Shown: positions 17,709-55,037, counted from the stretch's first letter. The stretch is 64,000 bases of DNA from a virus (IMGVR_UViG_3300028909_000001), one strand, 5' to 3'. A program made the numbers and translations. The notes: generated from the letters alone by a model not told the origin.

Positions 17709-17749
17709 GTTATACCACAATTACTTGAAATCATGGTAGAGGGGTGGGG
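17709..17749 (-). promoter_or_regulatory. Class A promoter (C-box-N22-GGTATAAC)
   Basis: CCCCACCCCTC-N22-GGTATAAC. Confidence 0.7.
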
Positions 17750-17763
17750 TAGGTAAGTGAATT

Positions 17764-18087
17764 TCATTTCATCTTAATGAGAAGCCCAGTCCTGGCGAAT
17801 TCTGTCAACTCTTTGTCAGTAAATTGGGCTAACACTGATTGTCTTGGTTCAACAATCAAGTTACCAGTCATGTCCCAGATGTAACTGTCTCTTATTAATA
17901 CTGAATCTATAGTTAGACATATACTAACCAAGGAATCATCTACCCATAACGTCCGTGAATACCCACCATGGTTAACTCCATTAGTGAGTACGTTCGCGTT
18001 ATACACTATACCGTCAACTAGCTGAAAAGCTAGGTCCTTAGGTTTAGTTCTGAATATTTTGACTCCGGCCTGCTCGACCCCCGGCAA
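17764..18087 (-). CDS. Hypothetical protein, possibly the 3' part of a frameshifted gene
   Basis: Only a TTG start; overlapped by an upstream ATG ORF in another frame. Confidence 0.5.
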   Translation of the reverse strand: MPGVEQAGVKIFRTKPKDLAFQLVDGIVYNANVLTNGVNHGGYSRTLWVDDSLVSICLTIDSVLIRDSYIWDMTGNLIVEPRQSVLAQFTDKELTEFARTGLLIKMK

Positions 18088-18196
18088 ACCGTTGCAAGTC
18101 GAGCTCCTGTCCGCTCGTAATGATTACCAGCACGTCCTGAATAAGTTTTCGGTCCCCGAAACCAACATAATGTATAGCATGGATTGCTTTATTCAT
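18044..18196 (-). CDS. Small hypothetical protein (50 aa, MNKAIHAIHY...)
   Basis: Hand translation from ATG with AT-rich leader. Confidence 0.45.
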   Translation of the reverse strand: MNKAIHAIHYVGFGDRKLIQDVLVIITSGQELDLQRFAGGRAGRSQNIQN

Positions 18197-18255
18197 ATCT
18201 TAATTCCTTTTTATTATAGTTAGTAGCATGCACTCTACTAACTTTTATTGATTAT

Positions 18256-18507
18256 TTAAAGCTCAGTGAAAACCCGGTATCCAGCATCTTTCAAAGGCTG
18301 GACTAATAGTTGACCTACTTTTTTATCACCAATGCCTGGCAACTTTTTCATCGCCTTGACATTAACCACTACCGAGACAACCGCTTCTTCATTTTCAGGA
18401 TTGTCCAAGTCATTATGCCACAGGACTTTGGTGAACTGCAAATTTTTCCCTGCAATCTTGTTAATTTCAAGAATGCAGGTTTGGACTAACTCAAAGTCTA
18501 CTTCCAT
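18256..18507 (-). CDS. Hypothetical protein
   Basis: ATG 18507 (MEVDFEL) within the minus-strand cluster. Confidence 0.65.
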   Translation of the reverse strand: MEVDFELVQTCILEINKIAGKNLQFTKVLWHNDLDNPENEEAVVSVVVNVKAMKKLPGIGDKKVGQLLVQPLKDAGYRVFTEL

Positions 18508-18523
18508 ATTTTTCCTTTCTTGT

Positions 18524-18862
18524 TTAAGGTTGACTAGCAAGATAATTATCTACAAACAGTTTTGCGCGTTCGATTGTAACTGGAACACTACAACCATTAT
18601 CGGTAACCTCATATTTAAGTTCACCAGACTCCAGGGCTATCATAACTTCTATCAGAAATTTTGCCAGTTCTAATTTTTGGTCTTTGTAAAGACGGAGACG
18701 GAGAGGAAGAGGATCACCAGCTTTCCGTCTAGTAGTAGGCAATTCAATAACATACTCAGTAGTAATAGGCAACTCTTGGTTTATTGACAATTCCTTTTTT
18801 TGCCTTGCAAGTTCTTCCTGTGCCTCTTCAACAGAGAGGGTTATTACTGTTTTGTATTTCAT
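18524..18862 (-). CDS. Hypothetical protein
   Basis: ATG 18862 (MKYKTV) overlaps the upstream stop (ATGA). Confidence 0.65.
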   Translation of the reverse strand: MKYKTVITLSVEEAQEELARQKKELSINQELPITTEYVIELPTTRRKAGDPLPLRLRLYKDQKLELAKFLIEVMIALESGELKYEVTDNGCSVPVTIERAKLFVDNYLASQP

Positions 18863-18966
18863 AGTGGTTCTTGAAATGAGCAGGAAATTACAAGACACCA
18901 GAGCAAGTACCTTTTGAATTTGGACTTGCCCCGGAAATCTTGGAGGGAAAATCCTGCTGCCCTCAT
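18859..18966 (-). CDS. Small hypothetical peptide (35 aa)
   Basis: Hand translation MRAAGFSL...; stop coupled to the next start. Confidence 0.4.
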   Translation of the reverse strand: MRAAGFSLQDFRGKSKFKRYLLWCLVISCSFQEPL

Positions 18967-18983
18967 AGTTTTAATTGTAGTGT

Positions 18984-19241
18984 TCATGATTGTAATAGCG
19001 TTGTTTCTCCAAGAGTCAATATTGTATCATCATTCATAAAGACTAGTTCTTCTGATGATTTAATGAAGCCTAATACTATCAAGGCTTGGATTGCTTGGAA
19101 CAAATTACCAGAGTGACTAATATCTTTTGAACGCACCCCGTTGTTGAGAGCAGAATTTATCAAGTCTCTCACTGTGATTTGGGTAGGAGAGGTTTTAACA
19201 ACTCCTACCAGCCAGTTAATTGTTTCTTGAGTAGTTTTCAT
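18984..19241 (-). CDS. Small protein, possibly winged-helix-like
   Basis: MKTTQE...ITVRDLINSAL...LIVLGFIK pattern. Confidence 0.55.
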   Translation of the reverse strand: MKTTQETINWLVGVVKTSPTQITVRDLINSALNNGVRSKDISHSGNLFQAIQALIVLGFIKSSEELVFMNDDTILTLGETTLLQS

Positions 19242-19242
19242 A

Positions 19243-19512
19243 TTATTCTTTTTCCAACCATAGAACTGTACCTCGTTCAAATAAAGGTACCATTCCTTCA
19301 ACTAGTTGAGGAGTAGAACCACCTCCTAAACAAGAAGTATGGACTGCCGGATCGAACTCGGCTTCCCATCCATCCTTCGATACATCAACAAAAACACTGT
19401 TAGCTGGATGGCGTTTCATTACATATTCTTGATTAGCCGGATTATCCAAGAATGCTCCATTAACTACGAATCGTTGGCATTCACAACAAACTGCATTTGC
19501 AAAATTTTTCAT
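19243..19512 (-). CDS. Hypothetical protein
   Basis: ATG lies within the repeated 65-bp module. Confidence 0.7.
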   Translation of the reverse strand: MKNFANAVCCECQRFVVNGAFLDNPANQEYVMKRHPANSVFVDVSKDGWEAEFDPAVHTSCLGGGSTPQLVEGMVPLFERGTVLWLEKE

Positions 19513-19569
19513 ATTTTATCATTTTATTAAAGAGGGTGGACTCATTTAGAATCCACCCTCCTAGTTTAA
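19505..19569 (-). repeat. 65-bp intergenic direct repeat, copy 1 (hairpin plus AT-rich start region)
   Basis: Identical to 20207-20272 except for one indel. Confidence 0.9.
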
Positions 19570-19575
19570 TTGTAG

Positions 19576-20214
19576 TTATTGATCTTGATAGACCAAGATC
19601 CCTTCTAGAGTATCAACCACTCCAGATTTAGAACTGCTACCACGACCAAACAGGTAGCCCACTATGCCTGGCCTATAATGCCCATGGTGGCTGGTACATA
19701 TATGTGCACCTACTAGCAGCACTTGATGGCGGTATGTACCACCGACATCCCATCGGATAAACTCTGTTTTCAGTTTGCGAACTTCTGTGAAGTCCTGATT
19801 ATTAGCCCATAGATATAGGGCCACCTCTTTTGCTAGGCCTATCCAATGACCTAGCCTTGCTATTTCGAGGTAACAAAGGTGCTTGGCTGTTTCATCAGCC
19901 ATATACTGCTTTAAAGCAGCAATATATCCGGCTCGGTACGATTCCGATGTGTCCCTGAATTCGGCATTAATGCCGGTAGATATGAACTTTCTACCATCCC
20001 ACCGGCTGAATGGGGTGTAAACCAACTCGTCCGGATAGTTTTCCGGAATTTCTTTTATCCAATAAGATTGGCATTCCGCCGTCCCTGCCAGATACCCATG
20101 TTCCCAGTCTTGCTGGGATTTAGTCATGGATTCTGCCCATTTTTGGGCAACCTCTTTTATTCCATTTTCCTTTGCAGCCATCAAAGCTGCAATTAATCTT
20201 CTATGTTTTTTCAT
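19576..20214 (-). CDS. Hypothetical protein
   Basis: 212-aa ATG ORF flanked by the two repeat copies. Confidence 0.75.
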   Translation of the reverse strand: MKKHRRLIAALMAAKENGIKEVAQKWAESMTKSQQDWEHGYLAGTAECQSYWIKEIPENYPDELVYTPFSRWDGRKFISTGINAEFRDTSESYRAGYIAALKQYMADETAKHLCYLEIARLGHWIGLAKEVALYLWANNQDFTEVRKLKTEFIRWDVGGTYRHQVLLVGAHICTSHHGHYRPGIVGYLFGRGSSSKSGVVDTLEGILVYQDQ

Positions 20215-20272
20215 ATTTTATCATTTTATTAAAGAGGGTGGACTCATTTAGAATCCACCACTCCTAGTTTAA
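20207..20272 (-). repeat. 65-bp intergenic direct repeat, copy 2
   Basis: GAGGGTGGA...TCCACC hairpin and TTTAATAAAATGATAAAATATGAAAAA. Confidence 0.9.
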
Positions 20273-20598
20273 ATTTGAGACCAGTGAACGGGCTGAGACT
20301 CTACCGGAACATTAACATAAGCTGGTAGATCGCCAGCAGTTGCCGTCATATCATCAGAGTAGTGCTTCTCGATATGCACACCACCCTGGTAATGCCCTAC
20401 TACGATCACAGTGAAGTGACCGTTGATCGTCTTGCCACAAAAAGTAATGCTTTCCAACTTCAGAATCTTGTGAGGATTAGCACTACTATTCTGCTGCCCT
20501 AAGTTCACTGCAATATCAGTATGCAGTGGAATTTTCCCCGGATCTGTCCGCCTCTTAAAGAGACGGTTCGCCCTATTATAGTTATCTAATGATGCCAT
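20269..20598 (-). CDS. Hypothetical protein
   Basis: ATG ORF tightly packed in the cluster. Confidence 0.7.
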   Translation of the reverse strand: MASLDNYNRANRLFKRRTDPGKIPLHTDIAVNLGQQNSSANPHKILKLESITFCGKTINGHFTVIVVGHYQGGVHIEKHYSDDMTATAGDLPAYVNVPVESQPVHWSQI

Positions 20599-20599
20599 A

Positions 20600-20986
20600 T
20601 CAATATTGTTTTTTGGTTATTACTAGATACGGAATGTACCCAGCTTTCGTTGGTTGGTCTAGTTTGAGAGCTTTGACTAGCTCTATTTTAACTACATGAC
20701 CGTGCTGCACTAATGCAACCGGTCTATTGAATCCTTGTAGTTGCTCCAAACTATCATCTAGCTGGAACAGGTGATATGTGAATACAAAGCCTGGAAACCG
20801 AAGTCTCAAGGCTCCTAACGGGTTAAGTCCGAAGGCATAGCACATCGGAACGAATTCCTGAATTAACTCCTGGTAATCAGGATGATGTAATAGTAGGGTA
20901 TGATCTCCATGTACCCCTATATTTTCCAATTCAGTGAAGAGGGTTTTTAAAACCTCTCCTACTAGTCGGTTAGTTTTTGTTTTCAT
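20600..20986 (-). CDS. Hypothetical protein
   Basis: ATG ORF tightly packed in the cluster. Confidence 0.7.
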   Translation of the reverse strand: MKTKTNRLVGEVLKTLFTELENIGVHGDHTLLLHHPDYQELIQEFVPMCYAFGLNPLGALRLRFPGFVFTYHLFQLDDSLEQLQGFNRPVALVQHGHVVKIELVKALKLDQPTKAGYIPYLVITKKQY

Positions 20987-21056
20987 TTAGATTAACTACA
21001 GCTTCTTATGGGAGCTAGTCCAGGTTGTGTTATTATAGTCAACCAACTATATTATT

Positions 21057-21899
21057 TTACCCTTCCCGAACAAACCTGATCTTATCTGCACATGGCCCCT
21101 TCTTATTAGTGGAATATACGAAAGAGACGGTATCTCCTTCATATAGTTTCCCGCTATCGATGGGAAATGTTACATCTTCCCAGTTAGTGACGTGCCAGTA
21201 TAGCCGTTGTGCCCCAGGGATATTGGGAAGAATAAATCCATACCCATTAGTGAAGATGGAGATGACAGTACCCTCCACCCTTTCATTAGATGAGGTCAGT
21301 TCCTTCAACCCAATGTACCGAATCTGCCCACCAACTGAAGAAACGGTTTTCATCTCGAACTCAGGTAACATTTCAATGATTTCGGAGAGCGATGTAACTC
21401 CGAACTCAGTGTAGTCTATCTCTGGGTTGAGCTTTTTCAAAGTCTCCCCTACAGATGCTAAGTTCGCACTCGGCCCACCCAACTGCCTTATCGTAGCTAA
21501 ATAGGCAGCCTTGATTTGCTGCTTCACTACATCTGATATTGGTGGGAATGCCTCCGGCTTGATCTCCTTCACTACCAAAGTAGCAATGGAGTTGGTTTCG
21601 CCACTAACCGGATCACGCTTTACCACATTAAGCTGAATTTTCCCAGCCTGCAGTTTCCGGAGCATGAATCCGGCATACTTCCCACCCGCCAATGTAATGT
21701 CAATAACCAGATCGATTACCTCCTGTTCGACCTTGACCGACTTCATCTCTGGTTGAATATTAGTGAGTTTAGTGAGTTTAACAACTTCCTCAACCTCAAG
21801 TTCTGTTAAGGAGCAGGAGGTTGAGTTGAGCCGAGGGACATACTTGAGAATCTCCTTACTAGAGATTCCCAACTTCTTAGCTAATTCGTGAACGCGCAT
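21057..21899 (-). CDS. IF2-N-like HTH + OST-HTH/LOTUS + cold-shock domain RNA-binding protein
   Basis: MRVHELAKKLGISSKEIL; LASVGETLKK...YTEFGVTSLSEII; GTV...GYGFI...LYWH...GDTVSF. Confidence 0.8.
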   Translation of the reverse strand: MRVHELAKKLGISSKEILKYVPRLNSTSCSLTELEVEEVVKLTKLTNIQPEMKSVKVEQEVIDLVIDITLAGGKYAGFMLRKLQAGKIQLNVVKRDPVSGETNSIATLVVKEIKPEAFPPISDVVKQQIKAAYLATIRQLGGPSANLASVGETLKKLNPEIDYTEFGVTSLSEIIEMLPEFEMKTVSSVGGQIRYIGLKELTSSNERVEGTVISIFTNGYGFILPNIPGAQRLYWHVTNWEDVTFPIDSGKLYEGDTVSFVYSTNKKGPCADKIRFVREG

Positions 21900-22073
21900 A
21901 TGTTTTTAGTTTGAAGGAGGAACAAGGAATTTATCTTGTCCCTATTATTGATTGTGAGTTTTACAGGAGTTCTAACAACCCCCTCCTGCCTTATCTTTAT
22001 TGCTGGAACAAAAGCCAGCAATTGAATTTTTGCGATTTTGATTTTCATTAAGTTAACAAACTCTGTTCAATAT

Positions 22074-22115
22074 ATTATACCTGATTATGGTAAATATAGA
22101 TGGTGGGGGGAGGGG
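22074..22115 (-). promoter_or_regulatory. Class A promoter (leftward)
   Basis: CCCCTCCCCCC-N23-GGTATAAT. Confidence 0.65.
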
Positions 22116-22151
22116 TCGTTATTCATATGTATCGTGTAATATAGTACCCGA

Positions 22152-22192
22152 CCCCTCCCCTCCTAATTATTTTGCCTAAATAAAGGTATAAT
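22152..22192 (+). promoter_or_regulatory. Class A promoter (rightward)
   Basis: CCCCTCCCCTC-N22-GGTATAAT. Confidence 0.7.
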
Positions 22193-22264
22193 AGTCTGAT
22201 AGAGCGTCTTTAAATATTTAGAGATGTTCTCAGTAAACCGCAACAAACGTTACTACAAAACATT

Positions 22265-22378
22265 ATGAAGATCACTGTTATCTGTTTATCCGTGGCCTGT
22301 GTCGTTTTACTGGGCTGGGCCATTGTCAAGACCACCCCCTCTGGGAGCAGAGCCCCGGCCCCTACTGCCCAGAAGTAA
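22265..22378 (+). CDS. Small membrane peptide (37 aa)
   Basis: Hand translation MKITVICLSVACVVLLGWAIVK... Confidence 0.5.
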   Translation: MKITVICLSVACVVLLGWAIVKTTPSGSRAPAPTAQK

Positions 22379-22426
22379 GTACAAGTTTCAACCCTGGCGC
22401 GCCCAGCAGTAAGCCAACGGTTGCGG

Positions 22427-22637
22427 TAGGAGGGGGCTGGAGAAGAGTAGTCTTCAGCCCCTATCCTTCCAGTTACATTCAGTAGTAAGTAAACTACCTA
22501 GATACTCATAGGTAGTTTACTTACTATTTTGTCATCTAATTTTTTTTGCTAGCGAACAACAAACAACATGAACATTTCTTTACTACGAGCACAATATGAT
22601 AACGCAGGGTCAAGGTCATGGTCAGGGACAAGGTCAG
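22427..22637 (+). repeat. Duplicated leader + MNISLL cassette, copy 1
   Basis: Similar to 23289-23469: hairpin, AGTTTACTTACTATTTTGTCATCTAAT, and an identical ORF start. Confidence 0.85.
22483..22526. repeat. Perfect 18-bp inverted repeat
   Basis: TAGTAAGTAAACTACCTA-N8-TAGGTAGTTTACTTACTA. Confidence 0.9.
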
Positions 22638-22840
22638 GGTCAAGGTCAGGGTCAGAGTCAGTGTCAAGGTCAAGGGCAGGGTCAGGGTCAAGGTCAGGGT
22701 CATGGTCAGTGTCAAGGTCAGGGTCAAGGTCATGGTCAAGGTCAGGGTCAAGGTCATGGTCAGAGTCAAGGTCAAGGTCAAGGTCAAGGTCAGGGTCAAG
22801 GTCAAGGTCAAGGTCAGGGTCAAGGTCAGGGACATGGTAA
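22568..22840 (+). CDS. Ser/Arg/Gly/Trp-repeat (RS-like) protein, copy 1
   Basis: The unique N-terminus MNISLLRAQYDNAG is conserved in both copies, which defines the frame. Confidence 0.7.
   Translation: MNISLLRAQYDNAGSRSWSGTRSGSRSGSESVSRSRAGSGSRSGSWSVSRSGSRSWSRSGSRSWSESRSRSRSRSGSRSRSRSGSRSGTW
22605..22837 (+). repeat. Hexamer tandem repeat (CARGGT/CATGGT)n
   Basis: Visible tandem array. Confidence 0.95.
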
Positions 22841-22915
22841 AAATAATAAAGTTCTGATCAACTCTACCAACGAACAACAAACAACAAACAACAAACAACA
22901 AACAACAACAAAAAT

Positions 22916-23278
22916 ATGATTAACATTAATGAACTAACTATTGGGGAAGTCAAGGAACTGGCAAAAATTGCTCAGTCGTTAAACCTCTGTTCCAAACCTG
23001 CTCCTGAAAATAACTCCCATCCGTACCAAGTCGGTGATAAATATTTCGTACGGACCGTTACCCATCACTATACCGGCCAGTTAGAGCAGGTATCGGAACA
23101 TGAGTTGGTCCTCTCCCAGGCCGCATGGGTTGCAGATGATGGTAAGTTTTCAGCAGCGGTCAGTTCTGGTAATTTCAATGAAGTTGAGATGTACCCGGCT
23201 TGCCAGAAAGTGATTATTGGTAGGGCTGCGATTTTGGATGCAGTAATGATTCCGGTGTTACCTACCCAGACCAAGTAA
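22916..23278 (+). CDS. Conserved phage protein (VRTVT...YTGQL...AAWVAD), possible Sm/SH3-like barrel
   Basis: Motif pattern recalled from phage proteins found next to SRS repeat ORFs. Confidence 0.75.
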   Translation: MININELTIGEVKELAKIAQSLNLCSKPAPENNSHPYQVGDKYFVRTVTHHYTGQLEQVSEHELVLSQAAWVADDGKFSAAVSSGNFNEVEMYPACQKVIIGRAAILDAVMIPVLPTQTK

Positions 23279-23288
23279 GTGAAGTTAA

Positions 23289-23469
23289 TAGGAGGGGTTG
23301 GAGAAGAATAGTCTTCAGCCTCTCCTAATTATATTTAGTAAGCAGTTTACTTACTATTTTGTCATCTAATTTTTTTGCCAGCTAACAATAACAAACAACA
23401 TGAACATTTCTTTACTACGAGCACAATATGATAACGCAGGGTCAAGGTCATGGTCAGGGACAAGGTCAA
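23289..23469 (+). repeat. Duplicated leader + MNISLL cassette, copy 2
   Basis: Similar to 22427-22637; the long palindrome is shortened here. Confidence 0.85.
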
Positions 23470-23738
23470 GGTTAGGGTCAGGGTCAGGGTCAGGGTCAGG
23501 GTCAGGGTCAAGGTTAGGGTCAGGGTCAGGGTCAGGGTCAGGGTCAGGGTCAGGGTCAAGGTCATGGTCAAGGTCAGGGTCAGAGTCAGTGTCAAGGTCA
23601 AGGTCAGGGTCAAGGTCAAGGTCATGGTCAGGGTCAAGGTCATGGTCAGGGACAAGGTCATGGTCAGGGTCAGGGTCAGGGTCATCGTCATCGTCATGGT
23701 CAGGGTCAGGGTCAGGGTCAAGGGCAGGGTCATCGTAA
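23400..23738 (+). CDS. Ser/Gly/Arg-repeat protein, copy 2
   Basis: Same N-terminus as copy 1, with a longer SG-rich array. Confidence 0.7.
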   Translation: MNISLLRAQYDNAGSRSWSGTRSRLGSGSGSGSGSGSRLGSGSGSGSGSGSGSRSWSRSGSESVSRSRSGSRSRSWSGSRSWSGTRSWSGSGSGSSSSSWSGSGSGSRAGSS

Positions 23739-23759
23739 TGGTCAGGGTCAAGGGCAGGT
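23437..23759 (+). repeat. Hexamer tandem repeat, copy 2
   Basis: Visible tandem array. Confidence 0.95.
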
Positions 23760-23778
23760 GCTATTAAGTAAGCAATTT

Positions 23779-23819
23779 GAATTGGTAGAATAGTTCAACT
23801 CTGGCTATTCTACCAATTC
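23779..23819. terminator. 15-bp perfect hairpin, probable terminator or processing site
   Basis: GAATTGGTAGAATAG-N11-CTATTCTACCAATTC. Confidence 0.7.
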
Positions 23820-23989
23820 CTTAAAAATAAATAATTTAACTTATTTTTAACTATAAGTAACTGTTTTACCTTATATACCACATTTACCCTCCTATCCACC
23901 TCCCTCCACCCCTCTCTGCATCCCCTAACCCTCACCTTTACCCTATAAACATTACTCATTATATCAAACTGTAGTATTATTTTATCTAT

Positions 23990-24337
23990 ATGAAACATAC
24001 AACTCGAATTACAATAAACCACCACTCCCTACCTCCAGAATACAAACTAACCCTGATAAATAAACTAACCCTCCTATACCCCCTCTCTTCAACTACTCAC
24101 TATTATTTAATCGTTCTTATACATGCCTTAACTAGCGCTACCACTAATATTACCTATTATGAGATTGGTAGATTCTTTTATAAACTATTTAAATGTATTA
24201 AGAATAATAAAGTTGAAGATAGAGTATATATTAATGCTAACCAATACTTAACCGAAACTGACATGCAAATCCTCTCCAACCTGATTGAATTCCATGACCT
24301 TACTACCGAACAAAATCAAGCTAATATCCAAAACTGA
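23990..24337 (+). CDS. Leu-rich small protein, possible paralog 1
   Basis: ATG ORF; pattern similar to the next two ORFs. Confidence 0.6.
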   Translation: MKHTTRITINHHSLPPEYKLTLINKLTLLYPLSSTTHYYLIVLIHALTSATTNITYYEIGRFFYKLFKCIKNNKVEDRVYINANQYLTETDMQILSNLIEFHDLTTEQNQANIQN

Positions 24338-24596
24338 TAGACTAGACCTTATTTATAGTTTAACTAATATATTCTTTGATACCATTCTAGTTAATACTGG
24401 TAGAAGTAATAAAGATAAAGTATCACTATTAACCGTAGTACATGCATTATCTTTTCCTAGCTCAGACTGGTATCCGATAACAGGATATTATAAAAAGCTC
24501 CTAACTTACATTAAAGAAGATGAACTAGAGGCTGATCCTAATATCAATATATATTTTACTAAGAAACATATAAAACTACTGAAATCAATTATATGA
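24294..24596 (+). CDS. Leu-rich small protein, possible paralog 2
   Basis: First in-frame ATG at 24294. Confidence 0.6.
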   Translation: MTLLPNKIKLISKTDRLDLIYSLTNIFFDTILVNTGRSNKDKVSLLTVVHALSFPSSDWYPITGYYKKLLTYIKEDELEADPNINIYFTKKHIKLLKSII

Positions 24597-24949
24597 ATAA
24601 CAATCCTATCTTTAATGAACCATTTATCCTCAATTTAAGTAGTGAGGCCAAACTACTACTAATTAAAGCCTTATGTAAACTAGCTATAAGTAATTTCAGC
24701 CATACTATATTAATTGATTCTTTTATAGTTATTAATAGTATAGTAAATAACCTGGAACGGGATACTGTTAATCTAGGTGATTACTGGCGAACTCTACCTA
24801 CTAGTAAAAGAACTAAGTGGGTAAGAATACTAGTATATATAAAGAATAGTCAGAACTTGGCCGAGACGCTTACATATCAACGAGGAAGCAGAGTTATTAA
24901 TCTGCTAACTGAACATGAATACGAACTACTTAAACAACTGATATTATGA
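24593..24949 (+). CDS. Leu-rich small protein, possible paralog 3
   Basis: ATGA coupling with neighbours. Confidence 0.65.
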   Translation: MNNNPIFNEPFILNLSSEAKLLLIKALCKLAISNFSHTILIDSFIVINSIVNNLERDTVNLGDYWRTLPTSKRTKWVRILVYIKNSQNLAETLTYQRGSRVINLLTEHEYELLKQLIL

Positions 24950-25314: not shown

Positions 25315-25448
25315 GATTATTCATACCTTTAATCCTGGTAGTCTCCCTGCTCAGCTATTGGTTCTGGTCCACCTATATCAGAAGTGAAAGTAAAAGACGT
25401 AGGGATATTAATTCTGACATTGAAAATAAACGCTTTGATGACTTATGA
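25311..25448 (+). CDS. Small membrane peptide (45 aa)
   Basis: Hand translation MRLFIPLILVVSLLSYWFW...; ATGA overlaps at both ends. Confidence 0.6.
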   Translation: MRLFIPLILVVSLLSYWFWSTYIRSESKRRRDINSDIENKRFDDL

Positions 25449-25840: not shown

Positions 25841-25975
25841 AATATGACCTCTTATTTCTTCTAATAAGGCTCTCTTAGGTCATTCTTTTAGAAGGAAATA
25901 TCTCATGTGTTTCCTTTTTTTAGCTAATAGTAATTGACAATAATCCGTATACCTCTAAACTCTTTATTTATCTAA

Positions 25976-27801: not shown

Positions 27802-27803
27802 TT

Positions 27804-28565: not shown

Positions 28566-28569
28566 TCAT

Positions 28570-33214: not shown

Positions 33215-33499
33215 ATGTCGAACGAAACACAATTAGAACAGCAATTGAATGCTGAATGGAGAAAAACTATTAAAGATAATCTTGAAGAACTCAGGACTGG
33301 TCAAAAACAATTAGCTAAGGATATTACTGATATTAAGCTAAGTTGTGCTCAAGCAGATGAAGTAAAAAGTCTGAGAGAAAAGGTCGAAAAACTTGAATTA
33401 TCTAAAGCTAAAACTACTGGAGTATTGGTAGCCGTAAATGTGATATTAATTTTTGCGGGCTGGTGTATTCAGACTTTACTGCTTGTACATCATAGTTAA
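33215..33499 (+). CDS. Coiled-coil protein with C-terminal TM helix (holin/XhlA-like)
   Basis: Heptad-rich N-terminus and hydrophobic C-terminus. Confidence 0.55.
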   Translation: MSNETQLEQQLNAEWRKTIKDNLEELRTGQKQLAKDITDIKLSCAQADEVKSLREKVEKLELSKAKTTGVLVAVNVILIFAGWCIQTLLLVHHS

Positions 33500-34146
33500 G
33501 CAGGCCTTCTTCTTTCATTTCTTGGTAAGTTGAATTGTAGATATTTCTCATACTTTCTAGTCAGTCCAATTCTGTCTTCTAGAAAGCCTTGATAAATATA
33601 GTTACCGAATTTATAACCACCACAAATGCTAGGTATAACTATTCTAGAACCCTTATGTCCAGTTTTTTTATTAATCTCCCTCCCTATTCTATAATGAATC
33701 TCCATAGGTAATACTAATTTCTCAAAAGCAGACCAATCTTGAGTGTAGGGACCACAAATACTATAAGAACAATGACCATCTCTGGATATACAAAAACAAC
33801 CATCCCCATCACTGTAACCCCTCCACCAGTAATGAGTTAGGTTTTCAGGTATAATGCTTAATATTGTAGGAGCTTGATCTTTACTTCTATAATTGTAACT
33901 AATTAATTTAGTTGCTAATTCTACACTACCTTTTTGAAAACTCATTTGTAATTGCCCTGGTGGATTTGTTTTTTGTATATTTCTACGTATATTCCAATTC
34001 CAGGCTTTCATAAGTGTTGGTTCAATAATTACTGCATCAACTTGTTTTATAGCTATTTTAATTTTATTTTCTTTAGATATAGACCCGTCGGCCCAGATAA
34101 ATCCTAACGTATATGCTGTCTCTGCTGTTATATTAGTTAAATCCAT
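33496..34146 (-). mobile_element. Free-standing LAGLIDADG homing endonuclease
   Basis: AYTLGFIWADG and WWRGYSDGDG; start moved to ATG 34146 behind TTGACA-N17-TACTGT-N6. Confidence 0.85.
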
Positions 34147-34152
34147 ATAATG

Positions 34153-34181
34153 ACAGTACACATTAGCTACCACGCTGTCAA
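34153..34181 (-). promoter_or_regulatory. sigma70-type leaderless promoter of the endonuclease
   Basis: TTGACA-N17-TACTGT-N6-ATG. Confidence 0.7.
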
Positions 34182-34280
34182 TATTATAGCGCATATATCT
34201 GTTGACTAAACTTATAATAATAGTTAATATAGAAATATACGAATAAACAATTATGTTTATTTTAACTAATTATACAATCT

Positions 34281-36394: not shown

Positions 36395-38211
36395 GTAATA
36401 GTTTCATAGATAGCTTGATTGAGGTAACTAATTCTACTAATCATCAAGCACAGTATATACCACAACCGTCTAGTAGTATTCCTAGTTCTGGATGTACTTT
36501 ACCAGCATTGCTCACACCTCCTACTATCGGAGCAGTCACACCACCATCTAATGTAAAAGCTTGTGTACCTTTATTCGTACAATTTCCATTAGTACCAGAA
36601 CCCTTTCCATTACCTGAGAATTGCCCTTCAGGTATTTCATTTACTCCTAATACTCAAGCTATAGGGATATTAAATACTTCTGGAATGATTCCTTATACTT
36701 CTATTACTGTAGGTATAACTCCAGGAGTTGATGTTTGTCATTTTAATTTAGACATCCCACCTACACTAATTATACCTTGCTATCCTACTGGTCCTTTATT
36801 TAGTGGAGTTTTACAGTTTAAGATGGTTGGTGATGGTTCTCCAATTGCAGATGATTTTTCATTAAGCACTACTAGAATTAGTGGAGATATAACCCAGCCT
36901 TGTACCTGGAATATTGATACTATAATAAATCTACCAACCCCTAATTGCGCAGCTGGTATTTCATTTCAGAGCAATGTAACGGTAAATCTAAATAATAGTA
37001 CAGCTCTACCACCAGTAATAACATATTTATATTCAAGGGTTTATTCTATAGGACAGAGCATAATTGATACTAATGGAAATCTACAAACAGTCACTGCTAT
37101 TACTGGTGATGGTACATCCGGTGTAACTGCTCCTACCTGGGCTATATCTGGTACTACTGTAGATCATAATGTTACCTGGACCATGTCTCAAGCATCAATA
37201 AGTAACTATGCTTATGTTGATGTTTTAAGTCAGTATGATTATTATAGATTAATACATGGAATTCCCCCTACTACCAAAGATTGCGGTTCAGTATTGTTAG
37301 GTAATCTTGAATTAGGTATTGTTTGTCCATCAGGTTTAAGTGTAGGAGGTAGTGGGACAGCTACCTTTTTATTCCCTGGTGATATAGGTTATAGTGCTCC
37401 AGTAGGTGATCCAACTATTGCGTTATCTATTAGTTCTTGTAATTTAAATTTTGGTATTACTAATATAAGTTTCCCGGCTTTAAAATGTGCTTCAGGTTAT
37501 ACAGCAAACGCAGTTTCAGTAACTAGTGTAAAGGATGTATTAGGAAATACAGTTAGTCAGACTGGTGGAGGAAATACACCTTTTCAAATAACCCCCTCAG
37601 CTTGTTTAGGATTATCAAATCTAGGTAATCTAATAGTTCCTGGTTGTGCTCCTGGTAATTTTGTTAATTGGTATTTAAATTCTTCTACTTCAGGTGGAAC
37701 TACTACATTATCTATTTCTAGTGGTTCTCCTACTACTAGCAGCTATTTAACTGTAACTCCTACTACTTGTGGTATAACTCCTTCTGGTTCATTTTCATTT
37801 AGCAGTGCTTCAAGTTTAGGAATAACTGATGGTACTACAAGTTTAAGTAATGTATCTAATATTACTTTTAATGGAATGACAGTTGGAGGTACTAGTGGGG
37901 CAGCTACCGTAACTGGAACTAAGTTAACTGATGGCACTACTACATTAAATGGGGCACAGATGCTTACTTTTGTAGGTGGTACTTTAAGTGGTACTACTTC
38001 CAGTGCTACAATTACAATAAGTCCAGCTGGTTCCGGGCTTAATTATCGAGGAGTTTGGAGTGCATTATCTACTTATAATCTTAATGATGTTGCAGTATTA
38101 GGGGCAGGTACTTCGTCTGGTATGTATATATGTTTAATAAATTCTAATACTAATAGTCCTGATACTGGTACTGGCTGGTTTCAAGCCTGTTCTTATGCTA
38201 CCTGGTTATAA
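36391..38211 (+). CDS. Tail/baseplate-associated structural protein
   Basis: Cys/Pro-rich N-terminal half, IIDTNGN module, C-terminal YRGVWSALSTYNLNDV carbohydrate-binding-like module. Confidence 0.65.
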   Translation: MSNSFIDSLIEVTNSTNHQAQYIPQPSSSIPSSGCTLPALLTPPTIGAVTPPSNVKACVPLFVQFPLVPEPFPLPENCPSGISFTPNTQAIGILNTSGMIPYTSITVGITPGVDVCHFNLDIPPTLIIPCYPTGPLFSGVLQFKMVGDGSPIADDFSLSTTRISGDITQPCTWNIDTIINLPTPNCAAGISFQSNVTVNLNNSTALPPVITYLYSRVYSIGQSIIDTNGNLQTVTAITGDGTSGVTAPTWAISGTTVDHNVTWTMSQASISNYAYVDVLSQYDYYRLIHGIPPTTKDCGSVLLGNLELGIVCPSGLSVGGSGTATFLFPGDIGYSAPVGDPTIALSISSCNLNFGITNISFPALKCASGYTANAVSVTSVKDVLGNTVSQTGGGNTPFQITPSACLGLSNLGNLIVPGCAPGNFVNWYLNSSTSGGTTTLSISSGSPTTSSYLTVTPTTCGITPSGSFSFSSASSLGITDGTTSLSNVSNITFNGMTVGGTSGAATVTGTKLTDGTTTLNGAQMLTFVGGTLSGTTSSATITISPAGSGLNYRGVWSALSTYNLNDVAVLGAGTSSGMYICLINSNTNSPDTGTGWFQACSYATWL

Positions 38212-41109: not shown

Positions 41110-41151
41110 TTGAATTGACTGGTATATCAAGTTTGTGTTAGAGTTGGAATT

Positions 41152-44901: not shown

Positions 44902-44905
44902 TGAA

Positions 44906-46669: not shown

Positions 46670-46687
46670 GAAGCCCTCTTCTTTCAT

Positions 46688-47374: not shown

Positions 47375-47375
47375 A

Positions 47376-48116: not shown

Positions 48117-48122
48117 AGTATT

Positions 48123-48190
48123 ATTCTACTTTCTTGGAACTACTTAAACAATAAAATAAAGTTGACAACATTACCGTACATTTCTAAAGT
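48123..48190. promoter_or_regulatory. Divergent pair of leaderless sigma70-type promoters
   Basis: Minus: TTGTTT-N17-TAGAAT-N6-ATG(48116). Plus: TTGACA-N17-TAAAGT-N6-ATG(48197). Confidence 0.7.
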
Positions 48191-48196
48191 AGTGTT

Positions 48197-48400
48197 ATGC
48201 AATTAGAGATAAATTACGAACCAGAAGATGAGGAAGTCACTATTATAGTTGATAATGCTGACGTTCTTAAAGCTACATTAGGGGAAAAGAATTTACTAGT
48301 GCTTAATAAGAAGTTTAAAGATATAAAAGATGATAACGAGAAACTTTATACTGCACTTAGAAGTATTACCCTGTCTTTAATGGAGCTTACTGAGGTTTAA
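48197..48400 (+). CDS. Hypothetical protein
   Basis: ATG at the leaderless position. Confidence 0.65.
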   Translation: MQLEINYEPEDEEVTIIVDNADVLKATLGEKNLLVLNKKFKDIKDDNEKLYTALRSITLSLMELTEV

Positions 48401-48518
48401 TTAGATATAACAAATTTAACGGTAGGCAAGTAAAAAATTTGCCTAAATCTTCCTTGTCCCTATTCCTAAGGGGCATTTTTTATGATAACTTGATTATTCA
48501 ATCAACAATAATAACTAT

Positions 48519-48845
48519 ATGACAAATGACGAATACTTACAGTTTACAAGAACAACTGCAATCTATCCTAAAGATAGAGAATTAGAATACCTGGGTTTGG
48601 GCTTAGCATCAGAAGCAGGCGAGGTGTGTGGAAAATTAAAGAAAGTGATTAGAGATGATAATGGAGTTTTAAGTGATGTAGTAAAGTTAAGGTTGACAGA
48701 TGAATTAAGTGATGCAGCCTGGTATTTAACTAGACTGGCCGATACTTTAGGTCTTACATTAACTGAATTGTTAGAACATAACTATATGAAACTATCTTCT
48801 AGGAAAGAAAGAGGAACTATAGGTGGCTCTGGGGATTTGCGTTGA
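48519..48845 (+). CDS. mazG: MazG-like nucleotide pyrophosphohydrolase
   Basis: LGLASEAGEV...KKVIRD...ELSD..WY...N..KL.SRK.RG.I.GSGD.R. Confidence 0.9.
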   Translation: MTNDEYLQFTRTTAIYPKDRELEYLGLGLASEAGEVCGKLKKVIRDDNGVLSDVVKLRLTDELSDAAWYLTRLADTLGLTLTELLEHNYMKLSSRKERGTIGGSGDLR

Positions 48846-48847
48846 TT

Positions 48848-49339
48848 ATGAACTGGGATGAATATTTTATGAGGCGTGCATATTTAGCAGCCGAGATGAG
48901 CAAGGACCCGAGAACTAAAATAGGGGCAGTATTGGTTAGAGATGGTAAGTGGGATATTTCATCAGGTTTTAATGGATTCCCTGCTAAAGTTCAAGATTCA
49001 CCAGAAAGATATAGTGATAGAAATACTAAGCTAAAAATGATAGTACATGCCGAGGCTAATTCTGTACTCCAATGTGCTAAACTAGGTTATTCTAGTTTAG
49101 GAACTACCTTATATACTCTTGGGATGCCTTGTAATGAGTGTATGAAAACAATAATTCAAGGAGGGATTACAAGTATAGTACTTCATAAACAATGGCCAGA
49201 GATGACTTATTCTGGAGATTGGGTTGAAGCTTTTAGAATATCTACAATTATGGCTAGAGAAGCAGAAATAAATATTAGTTACTTAGATAAAGTACTAGGG
49301 ATTAAGGGGTTTTGTGATGGTAAAGAAATGAATGTATAA
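48848..49339 (+). CDS. dCMP deaminase
   Basis: SKDPRTKIGA, HAEAN, PCNEC. Confidence 0.92.
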   Translation: MNWDEYFMRRAYLAAEMSKDPRTKIGAVLVRDGKWDISSGFNGFPAKVQDSPERYSDRNTKLKMIVHAEANSVLQCAKLGYSSLGTTLYTLGMPCNECMKTIIQGGITSIVLHKQWPEMTYSGDWVEAFRISTIMAREAEINISYLDKVLGIKGFCDGKEMNV

Positions 49340-49342
49340 ATT

Positions 49343-51454: not shown

Positions 51455-51517
51455 TTAAAAACCATATATAACACTTAGCATTGACATATTTTATGTTCTG
51501 TGATATATATGAGTTAT

Positions 51518-52222
51518 ATGACTAAACCTAATTTGATAGGTAAAATATTTGGTAAATTGACAGTTATTTCAAAAGCTGATGAACATAAATTTCATCAACA
51601 ATATTGGAATTGTTTATGTAGTTGCGGTGTTACTACAATAACAACTTCAGCAAAGTTACTTAGTGGGCATACAAAATCTTGTGGTTGTTTACACAGAAAA
51701 GATTTACTAGGTAAAAAATTTGGTAACTTAGAAGTAATTCGTTTTGATAAAGTAGTTATAGGAAATGCTTATTGGTTATGTAAATGTAATTGTGGACGTG
51801 AAGCTTCTATTAGAGGTAGTAGTTTAATTTCTAAACATACTACAACATGTGGTTGTACACATTTAGCAGGTCATACCAATTGTTTATGGGGTGGTGTAGG
51901 GAATATTTCTGGAACGTATTGGTGTACAATGTGTGGAGGAGCTAAGCGCCGTGGTATCCCTGTTGAAATTACAAAACAATATTTGTGGGATGTATTAGTT
52001 AAACAAAATTTTATATGTGCTCTATCTGGTGTTTTGTTGATACTAAATTCAAAAAATGGTTGTTATGATGGAAATGCTTCTATTGATAGAATTGATTCTT
52101 CCAAGGCTTATATTGAAGGAAATATACAATGGGTGCACAAATATGTAAATTTAATGAAATTAGATAAATCCTCAGAAGAATTTATAAGATGGTGTAAACT
52201 CGTAGCAGATAACAACAAATAA
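51518..52222 (+). mobile_element. Free-standing zinc-finger/HNH-type homing endonuclease
   Basis: Repeated GK.FG.L.V...W.C.C.CG units; CALSG...ASIDRIDS...Y...N.QWV; upstream TTGACA at 51481. Confidence 0.8.
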
Positions 52223-52271
52223 TTATGAATTATGAATACATGTCAATTAGAACTTAAGAAGAAATAAATAT

Positions 52272-52712
52272 ATGACCAAATATGTACTAGGGTTTTTGTT
52301 TTCTACTGATCTATCTAAGGTAGTACTCATTAGAAAACAGCAACCAGAATGGATGAGGGGATTATTGAATGGAGTAGGCGGTAAGGTCGAATCAAGAGAA
52401 TTTCCTACCGATACTATGGTAAGAGAGTTTGAAGAGGAGGCTGGGGTTAAGATAATTGACTGGAAATATTACAGTATTATGCTTGGTACCGATACTGATA
52501 ATACTCCTTTTACAGTTTATTGTTATTATACAGTAACTGACCCAATTAACGTAAAAACTATGGAAGAAGAGGAAGTTGGAATCTTTGAAGTTAGTGAGGT
52601 AATAGCAGGGAAATTACCGATAATGAAGAATTTGCCTTGGTTGATCACAGCAGCTTTGGATTTTATCACTAATCCAAGGCCGCCAAGTTTTATAACTGCT
52701 AATTATGAATAG
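52272..52712 (+). CDS. Nudix hydrolase
   Basis: GGKVE.RE...DTMVREFEEEAG Nudix box. Confidence 0.9.
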   Translation: MTKYVLGFLFSTDLSKVVLIRKQQPEWMRGLLNGVGGKVESREFPTDTMVREFEEEAGVKIIDWKYYSIMLGTDTDNTPFTVYCYYTVTDPINVKTMEEEEVGIFEVSEVIAGKLPIMKNLPWLITAALDFITNPRPPSFITANYE

Positions 52713-52974
52713 CTTAGAACAAAGTAAATTAGACAAAATTAAACTAGAAATACATCAGGGTTTACTACCATTTATAGGAGAATTTAATACTGAATCATTG
52801 AGAGAATCAATAGAAGGATTTTTACGAGTATTACAGGAAGAATTTAATAAATGTAATGCTAATAATGATACTATAATCACTATTGTTCCAGATACTAGTG
52901 ATTCAAATATAATTAATATAAGTATGTCTTTAACCTATCATAGACCAATAAATAATATAACAATTTACAACTAA
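52705..52974 (+). CDS. Hypothetical protein
   Basis: ATG ORF in the operon. Confidence 0.6.
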   Translation: MNSLEQSKLDKIKLEIHQGLLPFIGEFNTESLRESIEGFLRVLQEEFNKCNANNDTIITIVPDTSDSNIINISMSLTYHRPINNITIYN

Positions 52975-53675
52975 TGAATAACATACCGATTATTGGTGAG
53001 AAGAGAGGTTTCCTTATTATAGCAGAAGGCGCAGATGCTTCGGGTAAGGATATGCATGTAGACCTGCTTAGACAGGCTTTAAACAAGACTGGATTTAGTG
53101 TGAAGACGTTTAGATCACCGGGTAGTACAGAATTAGGTGAGAAAATTAGAGAGATATTTAAATCTAGCAATACACCAATCTGTCCTGAAGCAGAATTGTT
53201 ACTTATGACTGCTTCTTTCGCACAACTAGTTAAAGATGCTATAAAACCTGCACTACAAGAAGGTAATATAGTTATCTGTAATAGGTTTTATTGGTCCACG
53301 ATTATTTATCAAGGATTCGGAAAGTTTGTAGATAAAGATATTATATCCGCTAATCTACATTTTGTGCTTAATGGTTTGGTTCCAGATTTAACCTTAGTCT
53401 TGCATACTACTGATGAAGAGACGGCTAGAAGAATATCAGAAAGAAAGACTACTGATAGATTTGAGTCTGAAAGTAAAGAATATCATGCCAGAATAAAGCA
53501 AGGTTTTGAATGGTTAATGAGTTTACAAGAAGCTAGTAAGGGAGCTATCATACCAATTGATAGCTCTGGTAGTATAGAAGACACACATAATGAGATATTT
53601 AGATGTGTAGCATTTAAAATAGGACAGTTAAAAGAAGGTACAATAGAAGTGGATTTAGCTAAAAAGATTATTTAA
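52974..53675 (+). CDS. tmk: Thymidylate kinase
   Basis: EGADASGK P-loop, RSPGS, NRFYWSTIIYQG, PDLT. Confidence 0.9.
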   Translation: MNNIPIIGEKRGFLIIAEGADASGKDMHVDLLRQALNKTGFSVKTFRSPGSTELGEKIREIFKSSNTPICPEAELLLMTASFAQLVKDAIKPALQEGNIVICNRFYWSTIIYQGFGKFVDKDIISANLHFVLNGLVPDLTLVLHTTDEETARRISERKTTDRFESESKEYHARIKQGFEWLMSLQEASKGAIIPIDSSGSIEDTHNEIFRCVAFKIGQLKEGTIEVDLAKKII

Positions 53676-53679
53676 ATTT

Positions 53680-53889
53680 ATGGGAAAACAACACTTAGAC
53701 AATATAAAGATAGTAAAATCAAAAGAAGCAGAACTAAAAAGAGACAAGTTTATTAAAGAAACTGAAGGTAATCATGCTAGAGTGGAAGATGGAAGAAAAA
53801 CTGAAGTTACCAAAGCTAGATTATCTGATAAAGAAGTTAGTGAGCAGAATAAAGTTACTGAGAACTGGGTTAACCAATACATTAAATGA
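53680..53889 (+). CDS. Hypothetical protein
   Basis: ATG ORF in the operon. Confidence 0.6.
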   Translation: MGKQHLDNIKIVKSKEAELKRDKFIKETEGNHARVEDGRKTEVTKARLSDKEVSEQNKVTENWVNQYIK

Positions 53890-54659
53890 ATAAAGGAGAG
53901 ACAATTAACGTTTTAGATCACGGATTTGTAAGATTAATTGATTGGATGGGTAATGATGAACGTATTTGTGAAGCTGCTAGAATAAGCTATAAAGCACCTA
54001 GTAAAGGAATAGAAGGTGACCGTAAACTGATTCAATATCTTTATAAAAATAGGCATACTAGTCCGTTTGAGATGGTAAAGATTACATTAAATATCAAGTT
54101 ACCTCTATTTGTTATGCGTCAATATGTTCGTCATAGGATGCAGAATTTAAATGAAGTTAGTGCTAGATATACAGAATTACCTAATGAGTTTTATATTCCT
54201 TCTAGTTGGAGAGTGCAAGATACTAAAAATAAACAAGGAAGTTTAGTTACTGGAGGTATGGATAACCAAGGTAATCTTATTGATGATAAATGGAATCCAA
54301 TTGTAGAACACTATAATCATATTCCAACTATAGAAGAAAATTATAGTAGAATAGATGTAACAGCTACAGAAGCATTAATAAAACATTGTCACTATTCTTA
54401 TGAGTTATATCAATCAATGTTGGCGCAAGGTATAGCTAGAGAGATGGCTAGGATGGTATTGCCTGTTAATATTTATACAGAAATATATGCTTGCTGGGAT
54501 TTAAAGAATCTACTTCACTTTATTACGTTAAGAGAAGATAGTCACGCTCAAGCAGAAATTCAGGAGTATGGTAAAGCTATTAAATTAATATGTCAGGATA
54601 AGTTTCCTTTAGTAATGGAAGCTTATGAAAAATATAAGTGGGTAGTTTTTGAGTCATAG
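53886..54659 (+). CDS. thyX: Flavin-dependent thymidylate synthase
   Basis: AARISY, HTSPFE, RQYVRHR...NEVSARY, REMARMVLP. Confidence 0.95.
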   Translation: MNKGETINVLDHGFVRLIDWMGNDERICEAARISYKAPSKGIEGDRKLIQYLYKNRHTSPFEMVKITLNIKLPLFVMRQYVRHRMQNLNEVSARYTELPNEFYIPSSWRVQDTKNKQGSLVTGGMDNQGNLIDDKWNPIVEHYNHIPTIEENYSRIDVTATEALIKHCHYSYELYQSMLAQGIAREMARMVLPVNIYTEIYACWDLKNLLHFITLREDSHAQAEIQEYGKAIKLICQDKFPLVMEAYEKYKWVVFES

Positions 54660-54663
54660 CTAA

Positions 54664-54710
54664 AGAAAAGGGTGCTGAGGTTAGGTATTTAACCCAACCT
54701 CAGCATCTTG
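54664..54710. terminator. Hairpin terminator after thyX
   Basis: GGTGCTGAGGTT/AACCTCAGCATC stem with a flanking A tract. Confidence 0.7.
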
Positions 54711-54814
54711 TTATTCGTATAACCCGATCGGGTAGGGAGTAGCAGGTCAGAGAAGGTGATAACGGTAAATACGAAAGCCAACGCCAGTACCATCATAATA
54801 AGTTCGTGTATCAT
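54689..54814 (-). CDS. Possible small membrane peptide (41 aa)
   Basis: Hand translation MIHELIMMVLALAFVFTVITF...; GGTATAAT upstream at 54865-54872. Confidence 0.35.
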   Translation of the reverse strand: MIHELIMMVLALAFVFTVITFSDLLLPTRSGYTNNKMLRLG

Positions 54815-54905
54815 AAGTTTAATTTTTAATGTTGCGGTTGTGGTTAAGAACTACTAATCATTTTATTATACCTTAAAATATGATAAATATGATGTAGGGT
54901 CCCCC

Positions 54906-54946
54906 TCCCTCCCCTCTACCTAACTTAAACTTAAATAGGGTATAAT
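54906..54946 (+). promoter_or_regulatory. Class A promoter
   Basis: TCCCTCCCCTC-N22-GGTATAAT. Confidence 0.7.
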
Positions 54947-54996
54947 AATTTGAATAACATAAACATTATTCGGAAATTTTTACTTATCTATCATAC

Positions 54997-55037
54997 CCCC
55001 TCCCCTCCACCAGAATTTTGATTAATTATGGTATGAT
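54997..55037 (+). promoter_or_regulatory. Class A promoter
   Basis: CCCCTCCCCTC-N22-GGTATGAT. Confidence 0.7.

Follow-up and report, generated by a model that had tools for sequence, protein, structure and literature searches.

A conserved core with an optional C-rich upstream box in an uncultured peat jumbo phage: a predicted lineage-specific promoter class

Jumbo phages that encode their own RNA polymerase (RNAP) obey a published rule by which each has its own conserved AT-rich motif near position −10 before early operons (PMC7598289). The polymerases of the phiKZ group are very divergent and are not accompanied by a sigma factor (PMC7824862). The DNA analysed here (the window) is a stretch of 64,000 nucleotides (nt) comprising bases 48898–112897 of G000, a 151-kilobase (kb) IMG/VR virus record (IMGVR_UViG_3300028909_000001) of an uncultured peat jumbo phage, and contains five copies (s1–s5) of a motif in which a C-rich box (C-box; CCCCWCCCCTC) precedes a TATAAT-like core at a nearly constant distance. 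As in the phiKZ group and other RNAP-encoding jumbo phages, the genome encodes a multisubunit RNAP of its own and carries a conserved AT-rich motif of about 10 nt near −10, before presumed early or accessory operons, that can be found by sequence alone. In contrast to the phiKZ group, the RNAP is bacterial-like, a sigma-70-family gene is present (in G000 and in its relatives G002 and G006) and the motif is joined by an extra C-rich upstream box, which has not been described for the phiKZ-group phages. The group to which G000 belongs, termed the peat clade, is predicted from its genes to have a different, sigma-containing kind of phage polymerase system.

Other described systems share single features with these sites. 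Salmonella phage Arash and Vibrio phage D69 encode a homologous fusion of the polymerase beta and beta' subunits and a sigma factor and have cores of the same family (tGGTATAAG-tAA in Arash and TGTTATAAG-TAA in D69), but their hexamers end in G rather than T, the downstream word is AaGTGTAA rather than A-NN-TTGA and there is no C-box. Extended −10 (TGn) promoters of the sigma-70 type likewise combine a near-perfect TATAAT with G at −14 and need no −35 hexamer, whereas in the window T(−15) is not conserved and G(−13), A-NN-TTGA and the C-box are extra fixed elements. The middle and late promoters of Thermus phage P23-45 are also of the −35-less extended −10 type. T4 middle promoters, which form a separate temporal class beside standard promoters, pair a good −10 element with an oriented, non-palindromic upstream box that replaces the −35; that box, however, is the MotA box TGCTTtA at −30, used with AsiA and MotA, while the C-rich box lies at about −42, and no MotA-box word occurs in the −35 to −25 region of the five sites. 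Upstream (UP) elements and class II sites share with the C-box a position at −47 to −37 abutting the −35, rigid helical phasing and very strong stable-RNA units. UP elements are A/T-rich and contacted by the alpha C-terminal domain and class II sites are usually dyad-symmetric, whereas the C-box is G/C-only, asymmetric and strand-specific.

Judged from the sequence comparisons given below, the five sites are a real, conserved promoter class specific to this phage lineage. The favoured interpretation, with a probability of roughly 55%, is that they are promoters of a phage polymerase–sigma holoenzyme to which the C-box would have been added as an upstream enhancer. Phage-specific promoter sets are a key to the infection programme of uncultured giant phages, and here one motif links a bacterial-like phage RNAP, a sigma factor (a virion protein in a cultured relative) and the most strongly expressed units, including an abundant RNA that begins at 55093. 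In the reviews consulted on jumbo-phage transcription, phages with an RNAP gene lack sigma and those with a sigma gene lack RNAP. The peat clade has both, and its promoter grammar was not found described in the searchable literature, where the box sequence returned only unrelated eukaryotic papers.

Motif composition, spacing and conservation

The pattern CCCCWCCCCTC-N20-25-GGTATRAY is present in three exact copies, at 17709–17749 on the minus strand and at 22152–22192 and 54997–55037 on the plus strand, with 0.00 expected from shuffled sequences. Allowing one mismatch in the box adds 22074–22115 on the minus strand (CCCCTCCCCCC, N23) and 54906–54946 on the plus strand (TCCCTCCCCTC, N22), and these five copies are the only ones in the 151-kb record. 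An earlier note on this DNA had listed the same five intergenic copies, with exactly 22 nt between box and core in all but the N23 copy and with no TTGACA at −35 in any of them, and all of this is borne out. Near-matches to the box alone (one mismatch) number eight against 0.61 expected, and the window contains every one that the record has.

Alignment of the five copies gives a full motif consisting of the box, yACC, GGTATAAT and A-NN-(T)TGA, the last of which is invariant. The hexamer is TATAAT, TATGAT or TATAAC, its final base being T in four of the five sites and C in s1. Both G(−14) and G(−13) are invariant, the second of which is no requirement of the sigma-70 family, while T(−15) is present in two of the five sites and in all four sites of G002. 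Only ten of the 52 GGTATRAY sites in the record have the downstream A-NN-TGA, and five of these ten carry a C-box compared with none of the other 42. Chance is rejected as the source of the motif because shuffled sequences gave no matches and because the box segregates in this way with the downstream motif.

The box contains only C and T on the non-template strand and has no dyad. On the assumption of a start 6–7 nt past the hexamer, the box covers −47 to −37 and is centred at about −42, abutting the −35 position, and the placement around −40 to −45 in the earlier note is then right. Its distance from the core is N22 in nine of the 12 aligned sites of G000–G003; in G004 and G006 it is mostly 20–24 nt, with two copies at about 31–32 nt, one helical turn further. 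The box keeps to one strand with respect to the promoter in about 23 of 25 cases (own tally of the listed sites). The copies fall into sub-families, with s1 resembling s2 and s5 resembling the G001 and G003 copies; a base-for-base alignment joins s5 to the second promoter of G003 and to the G001 copy and extends into the predicted first transcribed bases. A G-quadruplex, i-motif or H-DNA structure was considered for the box and rejected, as an intramolecular fold needs more C-tracts than the two present in most copies.

The relatives came to light when 2.9 million viral contigs were scanned with nothing but the DNA motif, which gave 9–12 contigs. Those that match in the downstream motif as well are G001–G006, which range from 33 to 53% in guanine-plus-cytosine (GC) content and all share proteins with G000 (20–60 open reading frames (ORFs) of at least 100 residues with a match). 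Searches for related loci with single proteins (a 187-residue ORF downstream of s5, the RNAP fusion and a LOTUS-domain protein) yielded no usable relatives. G000 itself has 35% GC and a CheckV completeness of 69%. Bases 1–12000 of G001 (IMGVR_UViG_3300037172_000055) correspond to G000 138096–150512 at 98–100% protein identity. G001 continues for about 29 kb past the point where G000 stops on the right and so offers a means of extending this incomplete genome; the motif copy that it carries at 36640 adds one more site, from a phage that is the same or nearly so. In G003 the 187-residue ORF is 54% identical and is preceded at the orthologous locus by the same tandem pair, 81 nt apart, and in a pairwise comparison with G000 the two promoters are the only well conserved blocks of that intergenic region. 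G002 (25–48% identity) has four or five copies, with spacings of N22, N22, N28 and N17.

The beta/beta' fusion is also encoded, at about 52% identity, in G004 (182 kb, 52.8% GC) and in G006 (190 kb, 43% GC, 97% complete). G004 has nine GGTATAAT words, all on one strand and nearly all followed by A-NC-TTG, and GG precedes nine of its 26 TATAAT hexamers. G006 has nine core sites, of which three have a C-run 20–24 nt upstream. The core sites are mostly intergenic and in G004 and G006 lie within poorly conserved middle regions. From these sites, the clade-wide element is the core, GGTATAAT-A-NN-TTGA, and the C-box is an optional upstream module on a subset of sites. The C-box was thus given too large a role when it was taken as the defining element, as only three of nine core sites in G006 are boxed.

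Units downstream of the boxed copies

All five copies are intergenic and oriented toward the next gene on their own strand. Downstream of the copies at 17.7 and 22.1 kb are runs of small unknown ORFs, set in a block of higher GC content; small hydrophobic peptides and a LOTUS/cold-shock-domain protein come first. The s4/s5 pair points into about 390 nt without an ORF, followed by the 187-residue ORF. The proposal that every copy points into an accessory gene run is therefore correct at 17.7 and 22.1 kb (three copies) and fails for the tandem pair at 54.9–55.0 kb, which points into an ORF-free stretch with an abundant non-coding RNA.

Part of the region 54600–56000 is present in 20 peat metatranscriptome runs from 19 studies. 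RNA was mapped as assembled contigs of four runs, and start sites, strand and expression level cannot be measured from such contigs; stretches lacking coverage were given no evidential weight. In two studies the contigs start exactly at 55093 and extend to 55290 or 55318; their k-mer depths are 3913 and 2057, versus 3–7 for neighbouring genes. Low-depth contigs from two other studies end at 55094 or 55095, and because upstream fragments end there the sharp end at 55093, which is 49 nt past the predicted s5 start, appears to be a site of processing. A comparison of this RNA with Rfam identified no family, the region giving only chance microRNA and small nucleolar RNA matches at E ≤ 5, and blastn and nhmmer searches of G001–G003 found no conservation of its sequence. 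In G003 the RNA sequence is not conserved and the ORF-free leader is.

Boxed promoters of the relatives also stand before RNA genes. The best boxed promoter of G004 (61369, minus strand) heads at least 31 transfer RNA (tRNA) genes and a transfer-messenger RNA (tmRNA) gene, an array at G004:40356–61482 on the minus strand (L122, L123). In G002 one boxed promoter heads an ORF-poor stretch of about 1.3 kb with a Pistol self-cleaving ribozyme; the ribozyme (G002:21063–21138, minus strand; L019:129–204) scores 39.6 bits against a gathering score of 34.5 and lies about 1.3 kb downstream of the C-box promoter. A subset of C-box sites thus heads stable-RNA units, namely the 55093 RNA, the G004 tRNA/tmRNA array and the G002 Pistol stretch.

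Candidate reading enzymes

The polymerase is multisubunit and bacterial-like (Rpb2_6 at 5e-45), and one polymerase set was seen. The sigma-70-family protein gives 28.8 bits with Sigma70_r3, above the cut-off, with weak matches to regions 2 and 4, matches phrog_351 ('sigma factor') at 2e-11 and has WhiG as its best solved relative; orthologs occur in G002 (48%) and G006 (43%). The best cultured homologues are in Arash, where the fusion corresponds to gp206 (30% identity over 96% of the protein) and the sigma factor to gp10 (31%). In purified Arash virions gp206 was the most abundant protein by mass spectrometry, which also detected the beta' protein gp216 and the sigma factor gp10 (PMC10585845). 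When the phage sigma factor is compared by eye with Escherichia coli sigma-70, its WW dyad and −35-reading residues appear to be replaced, an observation not used as evidence.

The exact peat-clade core is absent from Arash, and the related GGTATAAG emerged only through k-mer enrichment, where the top intergenic word was TGGTATAAG(TA). Arash (OQ632216.1; loci L144–L153) has 31 GGTATAAG sites, which make up 31 of its 72 TATAAG words and lie on one strand (minus) in 30 cases; their consensus is tGGTATAAGtAaagTgtAaa, usually 20–30 nt before a ribosome-binding site and ATG and often with a weak TCAATAA-like word 13–14 nt upstream of GG. The top intergenic word of D69 (OZ195729.1; L155–L164) is TGTTATAAG(TAATAT), with 15 of 19 copies intergenic, and the motif takes the form TGTTATAAGTAATAT. 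The three lineages share the core form TGkTATAAk. Arash and D69 are phages of gamma-proteobacteria, and the hexamers of their motifs end in G at the position of T(−7), the base that is best conserved in sigma-70 promoters and is needed there, so these motifs are unlikely to be sigma-70 promoters. Words of the form yCAgAAT, similar to the TCAATAA of Arash, follow the box in several peat copies when read by eye, and by the same reading the box likely lies upstream of the sigma region 4 contact, at the position of a proximal UP element. No mention of promoters was found in the Arash paper (PMC10585845), a literature search for GGTATAAG with phage gave unrelated papers among the matches listed, and there seems to be no earlier description of the promoter-like motifs of these two phages, Arash and D69.

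Recurrence of the core in relatives as far as Arash suggests that the phage's own machinery most likely reads the promoters, and reading by a phage polymerase fits the rule of lineage-specific, −10-centred motifs (PMC7598289). The holoenzyme is favoured as the reader because G replaces T(−7) in Arash and D69 and because the core persists in the peat clade over 33–53% GC. In such a mechanism the core, covering about −14 to +1 if transcription starts at the predicted G or A of TGA, would be read by the phage bacterial-type RNAP with the phage sigma factor. By analogy with Arash, virions probably carry the holoenzyme and inject it; these promoters would then be early ones, a timing that the gene content suggests. 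The C-box lies at about −47 to −37, always on one side of the helix (N22, sometimes N32), and would be an optional module that raises output, placed on promoters of very highly expressed units such as stable RNAs, tRNA arrays and the first takeover-type small genes. The core belongs to a wider, apparently undescribed family, with the C-box a peat-clade addition tied to very strong expression. A broader and more tentative proposal is that of a superclade of large phages, from Arash and D69 to uncultured peat and freshwater jumbo phages, with a virion-delivered split beta/beta' polymerase and sigma factor and their own grammar of TGkTATAAk plus start site; in the peat branch a strand-specific C-rich box (−47 to −37) would be read by part of this machinery and would boost stable-RNA and takeover transcripts. 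Arash, with its 31 GGTATAAG sites, can be cultured on Salmonella, where the hypothesis can be tested directly. As an upstream element made of G/C only the C-box would be unusual, and strong promoters that are both compact and orthogonal are useful as tools.

Several observations weigh against reading by a phage holoenzyme. The abundant RNA begins at 55093, an end that looks processed rather than a start, and a low-depth RNA contig (54860–55095) crosses both s4 and s5, which means that some read-through from thyX, or DNA contamination, is present. The peat-clade hexamer is a perfect sigma-70 −10 element with G(−14), and the host RNAP could read it without a phage factor. Many TTGACA-N16-18-TAnnnT promoters are present in the genome, and a strong −10 where the −35 is missing is also the expected output of a single sigma-70-type enzyme. 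The 7–10 core sites per genome, against 31 in Arash, are few for a complete early class. Packaging in the virion is known only from a relative with a 30% identical polymerase, and neither Arash nor most of the G006 core sites have the C-box, whose reader may therefore be another than that of the core.

The alternative that survives best, although it is rather unlikely, is that these are extended −10 promoters of the host sigma-70 enzyme, with G(−14) and TATAAT making a −35 unnecessary and the box acting as the site of a class II-type activator or repressor encoded by host or phage, or as a UP substitute. It is consistent with the hexamers, the invariant G(−14) and the T(−15) counts given above, with the class II or proximal UP position that follows arithmetically from a box centre of about −42, with the clear use of sigma-70-type TTGACA promoters elsewhere in the genome and with several chance bacterial matches that have a C-rich run right before a true TTGACA-N17-TATAAT. 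However, GG at −14/−13 and A-NN-TTGA are fixed throughout the clade while −7 varies (C in s1 and some G004 sites, G in Arash and D69), and the persistence of box and core over 33–53% GC suggests different hosts. An exact scan with one genome per species, covering 185,579 species of bacteria and archaea, returned 19 matches dispersed over many phyla, close to the roughly estimated chance number of about 22; thus no host group uses the architecture, and the scan gives no clue to the host. No match to MotA (PF09158) or AsiA (PF09010) was found at E ≤ 1 in the 151-kb record, although at 69% completeness their absence is not proven. The proposal in the earlier note of a separate class read by phage factors gains from the comparative evidence (the conserved orthologous region, a clade spanning 33–53% GC, the RNAP and sigma genes and the G at −7 in Arash and D69), with the qualification that host sigma-70 could also read a perfect TATAAT.

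It is improbable that only the core is a promoter and that the C-box is a boundary element of terminator–promoter cassettes, such as a Rho loading site, a rigid homopyrimidine block or an insulating hairpin. In its favour, several relatives have the box immediately after a terminator T-run (the TTTTTTTAGC-C-run arrangement), G004 and G006 both have TTTTTTAGC as their top intergenic word, a G-run close by can pair with the box in some copies (G004 175484 and 137016; G002 57864) and one RNA contig enters the s4/s5 region from upstream. The rigid box–core spacing (N22 in nine of 12 cases, and 20–24 or about 31–32 nt in G004 and G006) points instead to contact with the initiating enzyme, the box keeps its strand in nearly all tallied cases and 11 bases are short for a Rho loading site. 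A non-functional origin, as repeated ends of a small mobile cassette or as recombination hot spots with a chance TATAAT-like word, is very improbable: the sub-families exist, and copies flank the GC-richer small-ORF block at 16–24 kb in a manner reminiscent of T4-type promoter–stem-loop cassettes, but orientation always matches the downstream genes, sites are kept at orthologous places in relatives with 25–55% protein identity, no flanking repeats or transposase genes were seen, RNA output downstream is strong and promoter cassettes spread by recombination would still be promoters.

Feature coordinates and further observations

Table 1. Features discussed in the text; coordinates are those of the window unless prefixed with G000, and promoter assignments are predictions.
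Feature	Position	Strand	Elements and context
Promoter s1	17702–17749	minus	Box CCCCACCCCTC 17739–17749, N22, GGTATAAC 17709–17716, ATAATGA to 17702; 14 nt past the stop of ORF 17764–18087 (minus), 47 nt before ATG 17654 of a 133-residue ORF
Promoter s2, leftward of divergent pair	22067–22115	minus	Box CCCCTCCCCCC 22105–22115, N23, GGTATAAT 22074–22081, ATATTGA to 22067; then 55-residue ORF and 280-residue LOTUS/cold-shock-domain gene 21057–21899 (minus)
Promoter s3, rightward of divergent pair	22152–22199	plus	Box CCCCTCCCCTC 22152–22162, N22, GGTATAAT 22185–22192, AGTCTGA; then 37-residue hydrophobic ORF from 22266, then small-ORF run
Promoter s4, upstream of tandem pair	54901–54953	plus	C-run 54901–54916 (box TCCCTCCCCTC 54906–54916), N22, GGTATAAT 54939–54946, AATTTGA
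Promoter s5, downstream of tandem pair	54997–55044	plus	Box 54997–55007, N22, GGTATGAT 55030–55037, AACTTGA
Abundant stable RNA	55093–55318	plus	Downstream of s4/s5; RNA contigs of two studies
Sixth core, left-facing	54858–54872	minus	GGTATAAT-AAAATGA; box of s4 (54906) upstream in inverted orientation
Box-less core variant	48481–48493	plus	TATGATAACTTGA, 13 bases equal to the s5 core; intergenic, 26 nt before ORF 48519–48845
RNAP gene, fusion of beta C-terminal half and beta' N-terminal half	8341–11136	minus	931 residues; candidate part of the reading enzyme
Intein-bearing beta' pieces	6588–8309, 1919–4258	minus	
Sigma-70-family protein	G000:16052–16693	minus	213 residues; in virion gene block, outside the window, about 32 kb before its start

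The window also encodes a terminase, a class II ribonucleotide reductase and ThyX. Searches of the whole window gave no match with Rfam at the gathering threshold and no genes in a tRNA scan, and megablast of 36–56 kb against the INPHARED phages gave no match. A scan of metagenome contigs returned 42 matches, mostly a few loci recurring across samples or unrelated bacterial loci, which were not used as support; one family is a HlyD/PpiC locus of a bacterium with 37% GC, and only L098 and L105 (the latter equivalent to G001) look like clade members.

The block at 16000–24000, with 41–44% GC in a genome of 35% GC, contains many small ORFs that match no family. C-box promoters mark its bounds and also interrupt it, and cumulative GC skew reaches its minimum near 22.1 kb, at the divergent pair. 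A 40-nt C-rich tract at 23890–23975 on the plus strand, which includes CCACCCCTC and is followed by CCTATAAAC before ORF 23990–24337, may belong to the class as a degenerate copy whose spacing departs from the standard. The combination CCCCTCCACC-N20-GGTATAAT at 33818–33855 (plus strand) was set aside as probably a chance match, as it lies inside ORF 33496–34194 (minus strand) and is without A-NN-TGA.

A second promoter class in the window has the form TTGAC(A)-N16-18-TAnnnT (for example at 8309–8344, 15314–15349, 25934–25975, 41115–41151, 48162–48196 and 57380–57420). These sites often lie 6–8 nt before an ATG, as expected for leaderless messenger RNAs, and often follow a terminator ending in TTTTTTTAGC. 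In G000 there are about 15 intergenic TTGAC-N-TAnnnT promoters, several of them leaderless. The word GAAAGAAGA / TCTTCTTTCA, located in the G000 virion block and at 549–640 of the window on the minus strand, is among the most enriched intergenic words (six intergenic of 13 in total); it stands upstream of late-block genes and is probably a third regulatory motif.

Two further features near the tandem pair were read by eye. A two-way terminator hairpin is located at 54665–54700, immediately after thyX. The sixth, left-facing core aims at a hydrophobic ORF of about 41 codons and at this hairpin, and the arrangement brackets a unit of about 190 nt.

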